From assembly GCA_038231215.1 (NCBI GenBank), contig JBBRLS010000018.1, positions 3,832-67,831 of the forward strand: a stretch of DNA of 64,000 nucleotides, given 5' to 3'. Both the position numbers and the translations under genes were made by a program. The notes beneath the pieces were generated by a model that was not told the DNA's origin, did not search any database, and worked only from the letters and a program-made list of their open reading frames with translations. Positions 986 through 4,741 of this stretch are shown here, one piece after another; positions within the stretch are counted from its first letter, which is position 1, and the number at the start of each line of letters is the position of its first letter. The stretch is from Burkholderiales bacterium (GTDB lineage Bacteria > Pseudomonadota > Gammaproteobacteria > Burkholderiales > Burkholderiaceae_C).

Positions 986-1846
986 ATGCGAAGCGCGATG
1001 GTGACATTTCCCGGCGATGAAGTCTGGCCCTCGATCGGCCTGGGCACCTGGCGGATGGGCGAATCGGCGGGTCGGCGTCTCGCCGAAGTCGGCGCCGTTC
1101 GCGCCGCGATCGAGATGGGCTACCGCGTCATCGACACCGCTGAAATGTATGGTGAAGGCGGCGCGGAAGAGGTCGTCGGCAGCGCCGTCGCCGAAAGCCT
1201 TCGCGCCGGGACGGTCCGGCGCGAAGAGCTCTTCATCGTCACCAAGGTCTATCCGCACAACGCCAGCAAGGCGGGCACCGTGGCGGCCTGCGAGCGCAGC
1301 CTTCGTCGTCTCGGCCTCGACAGCGTCGACTGCTACCTGTTGCACTGGCGCGGCTCGGTGCCGCTCGGCGAGACCGTTTCCGCCTTCGAGGACCTTCGGG
1401 CGCGCGGTTGGTTCCGCCACTGGGGAGTAAGCAATTTCGATCTCGACGACATGGAGGAATTGCTCGGTGTCGACGGCGGCGAGCGCTGCACGACGAACCA
1501 GATCTACTACTCGCTGAGCGCGCGCGGCCCGGCCTTCGCCCTGTTGCCGTGGCAAGAGGCCCGGGGCATCGTGACGATGGCGTACTCGCCGATCGACCAG
1601 GGCGCACTGGCCCGCAACGCCGGCTTGCGCGCTATCGCTGCACGTCTTGCGATCACGCCGGCCCAATTGGCGCTGGCGTGGCTCGCCGCGCAGCCGGGCG
1701 TGATGGCGATTCCAAAATCGTCGGACCTTGCGCGCCTGAAGGAAAACCTCGACTCGCGAGACGTCGAGCTTTCGGCCGAGGACCTGGCGGCACTCGACCG
1801 AGCGTTCCCGCCGCCCGAGGGCAAGACGCCGCTCACCATGCGATGA
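986..1846 (+). CDS. Aldo/keto reductase (YeaE-like)
   Basis: GLGTW, IDTAEMYG, TKVYP, YLLHW and AYSPI motifs, plus the IPKSS cofactor loop. Confidence 0.92.
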   Translation: MRSAMVTFPGDEVWPSIGLGTWRMGESAGRRLAEVGAVRAAIEMGYRVIDTAEMYGEGGAEEVVGSAVAESLRAGTVRREELFIVTKVYPHNASKAGTVAACERSLRRLGLDSVDCYLLHWRGSVPLGETVSAFEDLRARGWFRHWGVSNFDLDDMEELLGVDGGERCTTNQIYYSLSARGPAFALLPWQEARGIVTMAYSPIDQGALARNAGLRAIAARLAITPAQLALAWLAAQPGVMAIPKSSDLARLKENLDSRDVELSAEDLAALDRAFPPPEGKTPLTMR

Positions 1847-1862
1847 GCGGCGCCTGGCTCTC

Positions 1863-2117
1863 TCATAGCCGGCTCACGCCGGGCAACCAGCCGACGAATC
1901 GGCCGTCCACGTAGAGCGCACCTTCCGGGGCGCCCGCCTCGGCGTGGAACTCGAAGCGCGGGTCGGACATCACGGCCGCCGGCTCGCGTGCCAGGCTCTG
2001 CGCCAGGCGCGCGAGCAGGGCGCTCGCGCTTTGCAGCAAGGCTGCCGCGAGGCTGCGCCCCGCTTCGGCCAAGGGTGCGGGGGCCTTGGCCCACCCCAGT
2101 TCTTTCAAGCTCGACAT
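1863..2117 (-). CDS. Small hypothetical protein (84 aa)
   Basis: AGGAAG upstream of the ATG. Ala/Leu helical N-terminus and an ordered C-terminus (EFHAEAGAPEGALYVDGRFVGWLPGVSRL). Confidence 0.65.
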   Translation of the reverse strand: MSSLKELGWAKAPAPLAEAGRSLAAALLQSASALLARLAQSLAREPAAVMSDPRFEFHAEAGAPEGALYVDGRFVGWLPGVSRL

Positions 2118-2163
2118 GATGGTCTTCCTGTGCGTTGGCGAAGACGGCGTCGCCGCCTTCGGT

Positions 2164-2322
2164 TCATGGGCTGTGCCTCATTTCGTTCAGTTGGCGCCGG
2201 AGCGCGTTGGCAGCGCGCTGGCGTTGGGTTCGTCCGTCGGGCCGGTGCGATCCGGCACGGCGCAGTCGCGCCGCCATCGCCATCGGGTTGCGCGGACGGG
2301 GCATGTTGAGTTCGATCTTCAT
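2164..2322 (-). CDS. Small basic protein (52 aa; PRNP...RRAGSH motif), possible ribosome-associated/rescue factor
   Basis: Strong AAGGAG Shine-Dalgarno 8 nt before the ATG at 2322. MKIELNMPRPRNPMAMAARLRRAGSHRPDGRTQRQRAANALRRQLNEMRHSP. The function is inference only. Confidence 0.65.
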   Translation of the reverse strand: MKIELNMPRPRNPMAMAARLRRAGSHRPDGRTQRQRAANALRRQLNEMRHSP

Positions 2323-2350
2323 GACATCGGCTCCTTCGCGTTCAGGGACA

Positions 2351-2392
2351 AAAAGCAAAACGGCCCGGTGCAGTGACGCGACCCGGGCCGTT
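2351..2392 (-). terminator. Intrinsic terminator / attenuator hairpin
   Basis: Minus strand AACGGCCCGG...CCGGGCCGTT stem followed by TTGCTTTT, lying just upstream of the RBS of the 52-aa gene. Confidence 0.75.
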
Positions 2393-2425
2393 GACGAAGT
2401 CTCTTTCGAGACCCTCAGCATGGCT

Positions 2426-2533
2426 TTACCCGGGCGGTGCTCCTATTGCACCCAAGACAGTCATCGATGCAGCGGCGCGGCCTGCGAGAAGGCAGGTCGA
2501 GACGGCGATCGAAGCGAGATTCAGCAGGGACAT
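2426..2533 (-). CDS. Putative leader peptide (35 aa)
   Basis: MSLLNLASIAVSTCLLAGRAAASMTVLGAIGAPPG*. It lies between a sigma70-like promoter and the terminator and is too short for the ORF track. Confidence 0.45.
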   Translation of the reverse strand: MSLLNLASIAVSTCLLAGRAAASMTVLGAIGAPPG

Positions 2534-2597
2534 GTGTCTTCCGACTTGGGTTGGGGAGGCGGGGTGTCGCCGTGCGCCAAGGCGCCGACTTGTTCAA

Positions 2598-2627
2598 ATG
2601 ATAAACGTGCGTCGACCGGGCTGGCAA
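2598..2627 (-). promoter_or_regulatory. Sigma70-like promoter
   Basis: Minus strand TTGCCA-N18-TATCAT. Confidence 0.5.
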
Positions 2628-2654
2628 GCGAATTCCGACGATCGCGCGAAGGCC

Positions 2655-3170
2655 TCAGCGTTTTCGTTTCAGCGGCGCCACAGCGGCGGCCGCCTTCGAC
2701 CAGAGCTGGGAGTCGGGGTCCGGTCCGGCGACGCCCGATGTCGGCGGTGACGGGGCTGAGGGTGGCTGCAGTGCTTCTCCGAGCAGGTCGAGCAGGCGCG
2801 AGCGCGCCCGCTCCGGGTGGCGTCGGTAGTAGCTCAACACCAGGCCGACGATGAAGCGCTCGTCGTCGTCGGCGGGCGCATCGGCAGGCGTGGCGCGGCT
2901 TCCAGGGTCGTGCGGCTCGTCGAGCCAACCGGCGGGCTTGTGACAACGCTGCTCGAACTGGCGCGCCAGGCGCTCGCCGATCTGCCGCGAGCGCGCCTTG
3001 ATCTGGCTCCAGTAACTCGGCTGGATGAGCAGCCGCTCGGCAAAGCGGCCGTCGAGGCCGCGCGCGGCGGTGGCGTCGGGATGCTTGACAACGGCGCGGA
3101 CGAAATCGTCGAACAGCGCCATCGCGTTCTCGAAGCGGATCTGCGCGAGGTCGCGCGGCTCGGTCGGCAT
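2655..3170 (-). CDS. Cro/CI-like HTH-domain protein
   Basis: Likely start MPTEPRD at 3170. The segment SYWSQIKARSRQIGERLARQFEQRCHKPAGWLD resembles the N-terminal HTH of phage repressors. Confidence 0.6.
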   Translation of the reverse strand: MPTEPRDLAQIRFENAMALFDDFVRAVVKHPDATAARGLDGRFAERLLIQPSYWSQIKARSRQIGERLARQFEQRCHKPAGWLDEPHDPGSRATPADAPADDDERFIVGLVLSYYRRHPERARSRLLDLLGEALQPPSAPSPPTSGVAGPDPDSQLWSKAAAAVAPLKRKR

Positions 3171-3241
3171 GGGCACCAATGATAAAGCTTGTTTATCAGA
3201 TCGGCCGGACGCTTGCGCCTGCGTCCGCGTCGCGGTCCTGC

Positions 3242-4741
3242 CTACTGGAACGCGACCTCCGCAAAGCTGCGCAGCTTCCTGCTGTGCAACTGGTCGATGC
3301 CCGCTTCGCGCAGCAACTCGATGGCACGGATGCCGATGCGCAGGTGCTGGTCGACGCGCTCGCGATAGAAATGATTCGCCATGCCGGGCAGCTTGATCTC
3401 GCCGTGCAGCGGCTTGTCGCTGACGCAGAGCAAGGTTCCGTACGGGACGCGAAAGCGAAAGCCGTTGGCGGCGATGGTGGCGCTCTCCATGTCGAGCGCG
3501 ATCGCCCGGCTCTGGCTGAAGCGCCGCTCCGGCGTGCTGATGGCATCGCGCGATGGCAGCAGCTCCCAATTGCGGTTGTCGGTGCTCGCGACGGTGCCCG
3601 TGCGCATGATCCGCTTCAGCTCGTAGCCCTTGAGCTGCGTCACTTGTGCCACTGCCTCCTCGAGCGCGACCTGAACCTCCGCGAGCGCCGGGATCGGCAC
3701 CCAGAGCGGGAGGTCCTCGTCGAGCACGTGGTCCTCGCGGACGTAGCCGTGCGCCAATACGTAGTCGCCGAGCTGCTGCGTGTTGCGCAGGCCGGCGCAG
3801 TGGCCGAGCATCACCCAGGCATGCGGCCGCAGCACCGCGATGTGGTCGGTGATCGTCTTCGCGTTGGCTGGTCCGACGCCAATGTTGACCATCGTGATGC
3901 CGCTTCCGTCCTCGCGCTTCAGGTGATAGGCAGGCATCTGCGGCAGGCGCGGCGGCGTGGCGCCGAGGTCGTCGCCCGGGCGCGAGGCGGCGCCGCGCGG
4001 CCGCTCGATGACGTTGCCCGGCTCCACGAAGGCGTCGTACTTGTCGTGGCCCGCGCCGCCGGCCATTGCCTCGTGGCCGAGGCGGACGAACTCGTCGATG
4101 TAGAACTGGTAGTTCGTGAACAGCACGAAGTTCTGGAAGTGCTCGGGGTCGGTGCCCGTGTAGTGGCGCAGGCGATGCAGCGAATAGTCGACGCGGGGCG
4201 CCGTGAACAGCGACAGCGGATGCGGCTGCCCTGGCCCGGCGACAAAGGTGCCATTGGCGATGCCGTCGTCCATCGCGCCGAGGTCGGGCAGGTCGAACAG
4301 GTCGCGCATGAGGAGGCGCCGCTCGAGCGTCAGGCTGCCTTCGATATGGTCGTGCTCGGCGAACGAGAAGTGAACGGGGATCGGCTGCACGCTGGTGCCG
4401 ATCTCGAGCGAGACGCCGTGGTTCTCGAGCAGCAGGCGGAACTGCTCCAGATAGTAGGTCGCGAAAAGGTCGGGCCGCGTCAGCGTCGTCTCGTAGGTTC
4501 CCGGACCGGACACGAAGCCGTAGCTGAGGCGCGAATCGGCGCGCGCGACCGTGTCCGTGTGAATGCGCACGAAGGGATAGCAGGCGCGAACGCGGCCGCC
4601 CGGCGCGGCGCCGCTGACGAACGCTTGCAACGCGCCGCGCAGGTGATCGACGCTGCCGTCGTAGATCTCGCGGGCGCGCGACAGCGCCGCCTCGGCGCTG
4701 TCGAAGCGCGCCGGTGCGATGAACGGCGGGAGCAGCGCCAC
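3242..4741 (-). CDS. amn: AMP nucleosidase
   Basis: FQNFVLFTNYQFYIDEF, QMPAYHL, MVNIGVGPANAKTITDH, ALDMESATIAANG and VSDKPLHGE motifs. Confidence 0.95.
   Translation of the reverse strand: MALLPPFIAPARFDSAEAALSRAREIYDGSVDHLRGALQAFVSGAAPGGRVRACYPFVRIHTDTVARADSRLSYGFVSGPGTYETTLTRPDLFATYYLEQFRLLLENHGVSLEIGTSVQPIPVHFSFAEHDHIEGSLTLERRLLMRDLFDLPDLGAMDDGIANGTFVAGPGQPHPLSLFTAPRVDYSLHRLRHYTGTDPEHFQNFVLFTNYQFYIDEFVRLGHEAMAGGAGHDKYDAFVEPGNVIERPRGAASRPGDDLGATPPRLPQMPAYHLKREDGSGITMVNIGVGPANAKTITDHIAVLRPHAWVMLGHCAGLRNTQQLGDYVLAHGYVREDHVLDEDLPLWVPIPALAEVQVALEEAVAQVTQLKGYELKRIMRTGTVASTDNRNWELLPSRDAISTPERRFSQSRAIALDMESATIAANGFRFRVPYGTLLCVSDKPLHGEIKLPGMANHFYRERVDQHLRIGIRAIELLREAGIDQLHSRKLRSFAEVAFQ

Follow-up and report, generated by a model that had tools for sequence, protein, structure and literature searches.

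On the minus strand of the window, the whole 64-kb stretch of Burkholderiales DNA analysed here, a short leader lies between a promoter and two small genes. We put the probability at roughly 60% that it works as a ribosome-mediated (leader-peptide) transcription attenuator and so gates the two-gene operon. A preliminary description of the sequence had proposed such an attenuator, and the proposal has gained support from more than 50 leaders in which the upstream ORF, hairpin, terminator and both genes (A and B) are syntenic, from a reading frame under selection, from a pairing predicted in 31 of 39 leaders and from folds with parts of the leader masked.

The promoter, the 35-codon ORF, the intrinsic terminator and the ribosome-binding site with its 52-aa gene were all named in that description, and all are present. 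The sigma-70-type promoter TTGCCA-N18-TATCAT was assigned by sequence match at 2627–2598; it is the sole sigma-70-like match within 2.1 kb, for which shuffled sequence yields 0.1. Judging from the position of the -10 element, the transcript is predicted to start at about 2591 and would begin with a hairpin at 2588–2566 and the motif GCGACACCCCG at 2570–2560. The base of this hairpin covaries among relatives (CG 16 / UA 12), and the motif is kept in every leader type. The leader ORF (MSLLNLASIAVSTCLLAGRAAASMTVLGAIGAPPG) occupies 2533–2426 and ends with GAPPG-TAA, the stop codon being at 2428–2426. The terminator at 2391–2350 consists of a 5' arm CGGCCCGGG (2390–2382), a 3' arm CCGGGCCG (2368–2361) and a U tract (2360–2350); its tail reads UUUUGCUUUUU. 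It folds with -21.8 kcal/mol (z = -3.7), and none of 200 shuffled sequences folds equally well. A simple terminator scanner missed it for the sole reason that the loop exceeds 8 nt. The Shine–Dalgarno sequence GAAGGAG (2337–2331) precedes gene A (2322–2164), which encodes an Arg-rich protein of 52 aa with the core motif PRNP..RRAGSH. Right after its stop codon is a hairpin (GAAGGCGGCG-A-CGCCGUCUUC, 2140–2160), the stem of which varies but still pairs in relatives (no formal count). Gene B (2117–1863) encodes 84 aa with the C-terminal motif EFHAEAGAPEGALYVDGxxVGWLPGVxRL. No other promoter was found, and the gap from terminator to Shine–Dalgarno sequence is only about 28 nt.

The arrangement recurs in related soil and freshwater Burkholderiales, in MAGs named Methylibium, Rhizobacter, Piscinibacter and Caldimonas. 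BLAST and pattern searches revealed the order promoter-ORF-hairpin-terminator-A-B in 41 unique leaders, plus leaders with variant terminators. The terminator stem is invariant in the 41 leaders, pairing is kept in the variant stems from other genera, and the inner stem and loop are conserved as GUUGCRUCACYGC. Gene A is conserved directly behind the terminator. In some genera the same promoter and genes occur and the leader ORF is absent.

The ORF is 33–45 codons long among the relatives. The start codon ATG aligns across 38 of 41 leaders; two others (L014 and L015) have CTG instead, and L060 is out of frame. The distance from the ATG to the CCGG at the ORF end falls into five classes (85, 88, 94, 97 and 100 nt) and equals 1 mod 3 in 40 of the 41 leaders. 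The untranslated spacer from CCGG to the terminator occurs in all lengths from 40 to 50 nt except 47. Because the indels in the ORF are multiples of three while the spacer lengths are free, the leader reading frame is under selection. The stop codon is in frame but variable (TAA, TGA or TAG; alternatively TGA/TAG at the base of hairpin P2, five codons further on). The dN/dS of the leader peptide is 0.71, versus 0.25 for gene A, and this nearly neutral evolution suggests that translation of the leader matters and its product does not. Taken together, the leader ORF is most likely a translated short frame. Pro-Pro aside, no residue type was found to be enriched or conserved in the peptide, and no codon run matches an operon end product. 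A signal-peptide or Sec-monitor reading of the peptide was rejected since neither N-terminal hydrophobicity nor charge is conserved.

The near-neutral dN/dS also bears on another reading, in which the leader would be an independent gene with a separate terminator, coding for a small RNA of about 240 nt or a small protein. A and B would then depend for their expression on steady leaky read-through, and there would be no switch. Such a gene would be consistent with the sequence conservation in distant relatives, which stops at the terminator T tract. It would also agree with two soil metatranscriptomes in which the word depth of leader contigs is above that of the downstream genes, and with one contig that ends 4 nt past the U tract, although contig depths and contig ends are weak evidence. 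However, a dN/dS of 0.71 argues against the product being functional as a protein, the leader was found nowhere but in fusion with the A/B operon, and a complementary element, conserved in position, is common to the ORF end and the terminator arm. We therefore regard an independent gene as improbable. A terminated leader might in addition act in trans, which would not replace a role in cis. Metatranscriptome contigs run across the terminator into gene A, and the leader is thus co-transcribed with gene A. A supposed transcript end at the terminator (run X30, locus L105) was discarded, as the contig in fact extends beyond the terminator and has its end within gene A, which supports co-transcription and not termination.

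Three hairpins were found between the start of the ORF and the terminator. P0 (CCUGC-CUUCUC-GCAGG, 2481–2496) lies inside the ORF, and its stem differs among relatives (CTGCC..GGCAG, CACC..GGTG and CTGCCGC..GCGGCAG in the alignment; no formal covariation count). P1 (GGUGC-loop-GCACC, 2436–2452; -6.5 kcal/mol) encodes Gly-Ala-x-Gly-Ala-(Pro) and has both-sided changes in 4 of 7 pairs. P2 (2392–2417; -8.8 kcal/mol) consists of a core, GGGUCUC-GAAA-GAGACUU at 2414–2397, and a UGA/UCA base extension, with compensatory changes in 7/7 core pairs and 3/3 base pairs. The hairpin had been described as GAAA-capped, which is true of the window; among the relatives, only the closest share the GNRA loop, whereas elsewhere other loops occur and covariation maintains the hairpin. 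Overall, 91.9% of the alignment cells are paired and double changes occur at 14 pairs. The covariation score is 0.216, compared with 0.095 for shuffles (0 of 500 reach 0.216) and 0.014–0.047 for slid controls. Since a MAFFT alignment misplaced the variable hairpins, RNAalifold recovered from it no more than the terminator and the 5' hairpin base, and a hand-seeded covariance model was therefore used instead. A search of positions 1500–3500 on both strands with Rfam covariance models (E up to 10) gave no match on the leader, only sub-threshold chance matches.

The preliminary description also claimed that one octamer occurs both at the ORF end and in the left arm of the terminator. Indeed, GCCCGGGT is present at 2435–2428, in the final codons, and at 2388–2381, in the terminator 5' arm. 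With only five occurrences on both strands of the window, the octamer is unlikely to be present by chance twice on one strand at a spacing of 47 nt. We propose that the upstream copy, GCCCGGGU (2435–2428), together with GCC at 2424–2422, forms the 5' strand of an antiterminator (2422–2435), which pairs with 2388–2381 in local folds. GCCCGGGU starts with the third base of the first Pro codon and continues over the next Pro and the Gly codon into the stop codon. CCGG is invariant in 36 aligned leaders and missing from the ORF end in a few others (L109, L125); it is fixed even across a codon wobble position or where the encoded amino acids are Ser-Gly, Thr-Gly, Ala-Gly or Arg-Ala. With the 3' arm left out of local folds, the last ORF codons (CCCGG and the nearby GCC) pair with the terminator 5' arm in 31 of 39 leaders. 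Masked folding, which had been proposed as a check, gave the expected alternatives in the window: a ribosome footprint at the stop codon leads to the terminator, and blocking of the 3' arm leads to the octamer–octamer helix.

This pairing is supported by complementarity but not by covariation. For the proposed antiterminator, 92.5% and 87.5% of the alignment cells are paired, but the changes are one-sided only and none is compensatory. The check for conservation in relatives suggested in the preliminary description speaks for the upstream ORF, the covarying P1 and P2 and the terminator, but it revealed no compensatory changes between the ORF end and the terminator arm. A comparison of cognate with non-cognate duplexes of ORF end and arm gave no covariation signal either (mean difference -0.5 kcal, 55% better), and among other 38-nt segments of the same leader and its downstream genes a median of 17% pair with the arm equally well. 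We relied on local folds because, in whole-leader minimum-energy folds of growing transcripts, the terminator arm often pairs elsewhere and its partner is not robust. The antiterminator of the window has -24.3 kcal/mol versus -30.6 kcal/mol for P2 plus terminator. Since the terminator state is 4–20 kcal more stable than the antiterminator, antitermination would have to be kinetic.

From these features we infer what the antiterminator is, which way the regulation runs, when read-through occurs and what role proline has. Transcription would start about 58 nt upstream of the ORF, and the RNA behind the ORF could adopt two alternative forms. One is the intrinsic terminator; in the other, GCCCGGGU and the GCC past the stop codon would pair with the terminator 5' arm and enclose P2. 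A ribosome that elongates, pauses or terminates at the last codons would cover the antiterminator 5' strand, so that the terminator forms and the operon is off. If the leader is untranslated, or if the ribosome is late or held further upstream, the antiterminator would form first and allow read-through into A and B. Because the switch would be set by the presence of a ribosome at the ORF end, the leader would report general translation capacity rather than the supply of one amino acid. The Ala-Pro-Pro-Gly at the ORF end may act as a brake by lengthening the stay of the ribosome over the switch.

The strong conservation of some untranslated parts could also point to a trans-acting factor (protein A or B, the neighbouring regulator, Hfq or a small RNA) that binds the terminator loop or the 5' motif, with the ORF as a passenger or helper. 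The inner stem and loop of the terminator (GUUGCRUCACYGC) and the 5' motif CAGCGACACC show conservation far beyond that of ordinary terminators or UTRs, in L112 and L115 the same promoter is followed by a hairpin and T tract but no ORF, and protein A is small and very basic. A factor of this kind would leave the frame selection and the in-frame placement of the stop codon unexplained, and searches of A, B and the regulator detected neither an RNA-binding domain nor a known family. We consider such a factor very unlikely as the main regulator, to about the same degree as an independent leader gene.

The terminal Pro-Pro-Gly, which the preliminary description suggested could make the leader sensitive to EF-P, deserves separate consideration. 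Motifs of the types XPP and PPX, APP and PPG included, rank with the strongest of those at which ribosomes stall in an EF-P-dependent manner. Most leaders have APPG, or PP in the last eight codons, and many relatives have a second Pro-Pro; one shortened leader of 13 codons reads MTRRIPPPAEPPR and another ends with GPPPRR. The motif is therefore common, as suggested, but Pro-Pro has been lost in at least nine leaders (L025, L093/L108, L099, L105, L111, L117, L123, L124 and L127) that keep both ORF and terminator. Furthermore, each nucleotide of GCA-CCG-CCC-GG lies within an RNA helix, either the 3' arm of P1 or the proposed antiterminator strand. The Ala wobble position covaries with the base it pairs with in P1, the second Pro codon is nearly always CCC and not CCG, which is usually the commoner of the two, and the Gly wobble position is free. 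Given this wobble behaviour and the helix overlap, RNA constraints alone can account for Pro-Pro-Gly. A sensor specific for proline or EF-P would have its decisive arrest at Ala-Pro-Pro-Gly, and its output would track EF-P activity or prolyl-tRNA supply, not general translation. However, a ribosome stalled at Pro-Pro-Gly would still mask the antiterminator and would thus deepen repression instead of inducing the operon. An engineered polyproline before the pyrL terminator has been shown to increase termination in an efp mutant (PMC5021804), so attenuation can be altered in this way. EF-P sensing by the leader is possible on the basis of its motif; a sensor dedicated to proline or EF-P is unlikely.

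Neither A nor B belongs to a known family. The gene A family comprises 896 clusters with the core motif PRNP..R.AG.H, and no Pfam or NCBIfam match was found for 25 family members and 7 distant members. Gene B has more than 3300 homologues, all hypothetical; its AlphaFold model (pLDDT 71) shows a long helix and a beta-hairpin, and a fold search with this model returned no structural match. No biosynthetic function was found for either gene. Homology of the 52-aa protein to the rescue factor ArfA was not supported: the family members have no match to PF03889 (KGKGSY motif), and hhalign of the family against the ArfA alignment gave a probability of 0.25% (E = 0.24). PF03889 is absent from the genome of the window and from 25 relatives, which leaves room for an ArfA analogue but proves nothing. 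In a sample of the class, ArfA occurs in 5 of 400 genomes and the gene A family in 19 of 401, both too rare for a test of complementary distribution. Weak second BLAST matches of the 52-aa gene (L019–L023) are not paralogues but chance GC-rich matches inside unrelated genes.

A second control layer may act at initiation. In relatives, a near-invariant operator, CTTGCGCAAGATAATC-N4-GTTTATCATYTGCGCAAG, overlaps the promoter. The operator is also written TTGCGCAA, and the copy in the window itself is degenerate. The adjoining upstream gene on the minus strand (2655–3170, start codon predicted) encodes a putative CI-like helix-turn-helix regulator of about 171 aa, which weakly matches phage CI repressor (E = 0.03). 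The 3' end of the regulator gene is kept upstream of the promoter in most loci, and the regulator is likely to be the partner of the operator. A more far-reaching idea is that the leader senses translation capacity or EF-P activity and switches on an unrecognised ribosome-associated stress module, made up of the basic protein of about 52 aa, a possible analogue of small rescue or hibernation factors, and its 84-aa partner, which would also be under a CI-like repressor acting at one of the most conserved operators of the family. We regard this idea as quite unlikely, slightly more so than a dedicated proline sensor. If poor leader translation does turn the operon on, a role of A and B in translation stress becomes directly testable, and the leader would lend itself, as a compact natural example, to the study of how the time that ribosomes spend at Pro-Pro-Gly-stop influences transcription termination. 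The operator and the neighbouring candidate repressor provide a second handle for experiments.

The proposed attenuator resembles the classical leaders trpL, hisL, leuL, pheL and thrL: a promoter-proximal mini-ORF, here most likely translated, is followed by a terminator, the 5' arm of which is here predicted to pair alternatively with the ORF 3' end. As in those leaders, a ribosome at the ORF end would favour termination, and the terminator is favoured thermodynamically, whereas the antiterminator would act kinetically. It differs from them in its lack of a cognate codon run, its non-biosynthetic genes, its longer ORF (33–45 codons) and its conserved internal hairpins. No 1:2-type anti-antiterminator, as in classical attenuators, was found in the leader, and an untranslated leader is therefore predicted to read through, unlike the classical ones. 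In E. coli pyrBI (pyrL), the outcome is likewise set by the position of the leading ribosome when RNA polymerase reaches the terminator. There, however, the ribosome covers the terminator and prevents termination, whereas the present ORF stops 15–35 nt before the terminator stem; the ribosome cannot reach the terminator and is thus predicted to promote termination.

Term-seq identified uORF attenuators that respond to antibiotics or translation stress in the leaders of Listeria lmo0919 and B. subtilis vmlR and bmrCD. Like these, the present leader would use a generic uORF to sense ribosome progress, with slow or blocked translation leading to the antiterminator and read-through. Those leaders control ABC-F or efflux resistance genes in Firmicutes, whereas ours belongs to a beta-proteobacterial lineage and precedes two unknown small proteins. 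Proline-containing leaders are represented by Salmonella mgtP (the mgtCBR leader), the engineered PPP-pyrL and PP-hisL reporters and CutF of Rhodobacter (PMC5021804, PMC8129111). In these, as here, consecutive Pro codons adjoin an RNA switch whose outcome could be tuned by the status of EF-P or prolyl-tRNA; here, in contrast, the prolines are at the extreme end of the ORF, their codons are strands of helices, and several lineages do without them. Natural leader-peptide attenuators are known from enterobacterial amino-acid operons and Firmicutes resistance genes. The leader described here would add a conserved one from a beta-proteobacterial lineage, which differs from the known systems in a peptide free of amino-acid specificity, in a near-optimal polyproline stall motif at its end and in the control of two uncharacterised but widespread small proteins.

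Every part of the proposed leader-peptide attenuator was found on the minus strand where the preliminary description had placed it. A sigma-70-type promoter, TTGCCA-N18-TATCAT (2627-2598), is the sole match of its kind in 2.1 kb (shuffles, 0.1) and is followed by a 35-codon leader ORF, MSLLNLASIAVSTCLLAGRAAASMTVLGAIGAPPG-TAA (2533-2426), the hairpin P2 (GGGUCUC-GAAA-GAGACUU; 2414-2397, -8.8 kcal/mol) and an intrinsic terminator (2391-2350) of -21.8 kcal/mol (z = -3.7), which none of 200 shuffles equalled in stability. A strong Shine-Dalgarno sequence, GAAGGAG (2337-2331), then precedes gene A, an ORF of 52 aa (2322-2164), and gene B, an ORF of 84 aa, lies at 2117-1863. The octamer GCCCGGGU, said to be shared by the ORF end and the 5' arm of the terminator, was located in the final ORF codons (2435-2428) and in that arm (2388-2381); it occurs five times in total on the two strands of the 64-kb window.

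The source genome is a 4.5-Mb MAG. BLAST with a 500-nt region gave matches in 20 of 61 relatives' genomes, all of the same genus, and in distant relatives the conserved block ended exactly at the T tract of the terminator. A scan of 185,579 species genomes for the terminator sequence pattern yielded 43 loci, 38 of them in Burkholderiales MAGs labelled Methylibium, Rhizobacter, Piscinibacter, Caldimonas and similar, from which 41 unique leaders were obtained; further leaders, whose terminators are variants, came from a later search via the downstream protein. The order promoter, ORF, hairpin, terminator, Shine-Dalgarno sequence, gene A (52-57 aa), gene B (84-99 aa) was the same in all leaders collected. 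A covariance model of the 3' half of the leader matched nine of 251 genomes of the family (eight of 201 genera), whereas gene B was found in 53 of the 251, indicating a wider operon to which the leader is an addition in a single sub-clade.

The leader ORF comprises 33-45 codons; its start codon is the aligned ATG in 38 of 41 leaders and CTG in two. It ends directly after ..APPG or five codons on, at a TGA or TAG in CGCUGA, a conserved sequence at the base of the following hairpin; the stop codon varies (TAA, TGA or TAG) while its position is kept. The distance from the ATG to the CCGG at the ORF end is 85, 88, 94, 97 or 100 nt and equals 1 mod 3 in 40 of 41 leaders. Between CCGG and the terminator, in non-coding sequence, every spacing of 40-50 nt occurs apart from 47. 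It follows that four or more independent indels had lengths divisible by three, and this only within the ORF. The peptide is barely constrained, with a dN/dS of 0.71 where gene A of these genomes has 0.25. Such a pattern across sequences is characteristic of a regulatory leader peptide, in which translation itself is under selection and the product is not. At one locus, L109, a shortened ORF of 13 codons, MTRRIPPPAEPPR, lies ahead of the same terminator and lacks CCGG at its end.

The RNA structure of the leader was evaluated with a hand-seeded covariance model to which the 41 leaders were aligned. In this alignment, 91.9% of cells were paired and 14 pairs showed two-sided changes; the covariation score was 0.216, compared with 0.095 for shuffles (0 of 500 as high) and 0.014-0.037 for slid controls. 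Compensatory changes were found in all ten pairs of P2 and in four of the seven pairs of P1, the hairpin inside the ORF before the prolines. The GNRA-capped hairpin of the preliminary description is thus conserved as a helix, but its GNRA loop is not. The terminator stem is invariant across the 41 leaders, partly because the collecting pattern required that stem. In other genera, however, it shows two-sided changes with pairing kept, from ACGG..CCGU to GCGG..CCGC or UCGG..CCGA, and from GGG..CCC to GGAC..GUCC or GGAG..CUCC. No match for the leader element was found in Rfam. The inner stem and loop of the terminator (2361-2382, minus strand; GUCGCGUCACUGC, consensus GUUGCRUCACYGC) are conserved far beyond what is usual for a terminator loop, possibly as a protein or RNA binding site.

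The alternative fold, or antiterminator, would pair the ORF end with the 5' arm of the terminator. In local folds from which the 3' arm was withheld, 31 of 39 leaders had the 5' arm paired with CCCGG at the end of the ORF; in most cases a second helix joined the GCC that follows to GGC, and the two helices together enclose P2. In the window, the antiterminator module was predicted at -24.3 kcal/mol, compared with -30.6 kcal/mol for P2 plus the terminator. The fold behaved as had been anticipated: with the ribosome footprint masked at the stop codon the terminator remained, and with the 3' arm blocked the octamer-octamer helix formed in local, ORF-length and full-length contexts. The ORF-end CCGG is invariant in the first 41 leaders despite spanning a wobble position, and was kept where the encoded residues had become Ser-Gly, Thr-Gly, Ala-Gly or Arg-Ala. 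However, the leader alignment held only one-sided changes in this helix and no compensatory ones, cognate duplexes of ORF end and arm had no advantage over non-cognate pairs (mean difference -0.5 kcal), and a median of 17% of other windows in these GC-rich leaders paired equally well with the terminator arm. The antiterminator is therefore plausible and conserved in position, but not proved by covariation; the proposed octamer pairing holds as a predicted fold at a conserved site and lacks the compensatory changes. The putative antiterminator strand lies within the final ORF codons.

Two of the strongest contexts for EF-P dependence meet in Ala-Pro-Pro-Gly. A second Pro-Pro precedes the stop in many relatives, and the 13-codon leader reads MTRRIPPPAEPPR. 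Several observations speak against selection on the peptide itself. These codons double as RNA: GCA-CC forms the 3' arm of P1 and G-CCC-GG the putative antiterminator strand. Of the wobble bases, that of the Ala codon covaries with the base it pairs with in P1 and that of the Gly codon is free, and the second Pro codon is nearly always CCC. Moreover, Pro-Pro is gone altogether from nine or more leaders in which the ORF and terminator persist, and a ribosome stalled at PPG would keep the antiterminator masked, so that a stall would deepen repression. Polyproline pausing is likely a brake that prolongs masking, with a role as an EF-P sensor possible but not established. An engineered precedent exists, in which polyproline ahead of pyrL gave more termination in an efp mutant (PMC5021804). 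A literature search on polyproline leader-peptide attenuation gave no mention of the present element.

Ahead of the operon, a nearly invariant element, CTTGCGCAAGATAATCAATCGTTTATCATYTGCGCAAG, overlaps the promoter at about 28 loci of the wider family (L100-L129 and L068). It contains two palindromic TTGCGCAA boxes about 30 bp, or three helical turns, apart; the window copy (2598-2627) is degenerate, with TTGCCAGC and TTGAACAA and an 18-nt spacer. A gene of about 171 aa (3170-2655, minus strand), always upstream of this operator, has weak similarity to the helix-turn-helix of phage CI repressor (E = 0.03); its product is probably the cognate regulator and a candidate for repressing the operon. 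A mechanically listed 304-aa ORF, which overlaps amn, is probably over-extended. In other genera, the same promoter occurs without the leader ORF: with a short UTR and no terminator in L068, with a hairpin and T tract in L112 and L115, and with leaders of about 350 nt in L118, L120, L121, L126, L128 and L129. The first three loci have neither the 5' hairpin nor the CAGCGACACC-like motif, variants of which are present in the long leaders.

The gene A protein is very basic and Arg-rich (about 52 aa; consensus MKIxI..KPRNPLVAxAxFRRAGSHR..RQQ..LRRELD..P) and belongs to a large, unnamed family (proteins P0133-P0282) with the core motif PRNP..R.AG.H, which comes to 896 clusters when a library of 1.8 billion proteins is grouped at 50% identity. 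Of 401 genomes sampled from the class, 19 have a member, and the distant members there show RNPVARSPLLRKGGAH. It had no match in Pfam or NCBIfam. By eye its N terminus resembles the ArfA motif, but this has no statistical support, and membership among ArfA-like rescue factors was unsupported (hhalign probability 0.25%); PF03889 was not found in the window's genome or its relatives. In the genome with loci L057 and L103, a tandem triplication of ELIDVAQRG is inserted into protein A. Directly behind the stop codon of gene A lies a strong hairpin, GAAGGCGGCG-A-CGCCGUCUUC (2140-2160, minus strand), whose stem sequence differs among relatives with pairing kept. Protein B has more than 3300 homologues, all hypothetical; its model, a long helix with a small beta-hairpin (pLDDT 71), gave no match in a structure search.

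Frame selection, the covariation of P1 and P2 and the conserved terminator support the core reading of a leader-peptide attenuator ahead of two small genes, here a new, well-conserved, ribosome-mediated one whose sensor ORF is specific to no amino acid. Metatranscriptome contigs from relatives span the leader and run past the terminator into gene A, so the two are co-transcribed; one contig stops 4 nt beyond the U tract, and contig depths are unreliable. The leader stop codon lies 15-35 nt ahead of the terminator stem, and a terminating ribosome extends about 12-13 nt beyond the A-site codon. We infer the sign and kinetics of regulation as follows. A ribosome terminating at the leader stop would cover GCCCGGGU and GCC with the terminator out of its reach; a ribosome on the final codons would thus let the terminator form and turn the operon off, and with no ribosome at the ORF end the antiterminator would form first and turn it on. 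With no conservation of the upstream codons, what the leader senses would be translation capacity in general and not a particular amino acid. A 1:2-type structure sequestering the ORF end in the untranslated leader was looked for and not found, so that read-through is the prediction for a leader that is translated slowly or not at all. This switch, as the best-supported model, resembles trp-type logic in the state with the ribosome at the end of the leader ORF, in which the terminator forms and the operon is off.
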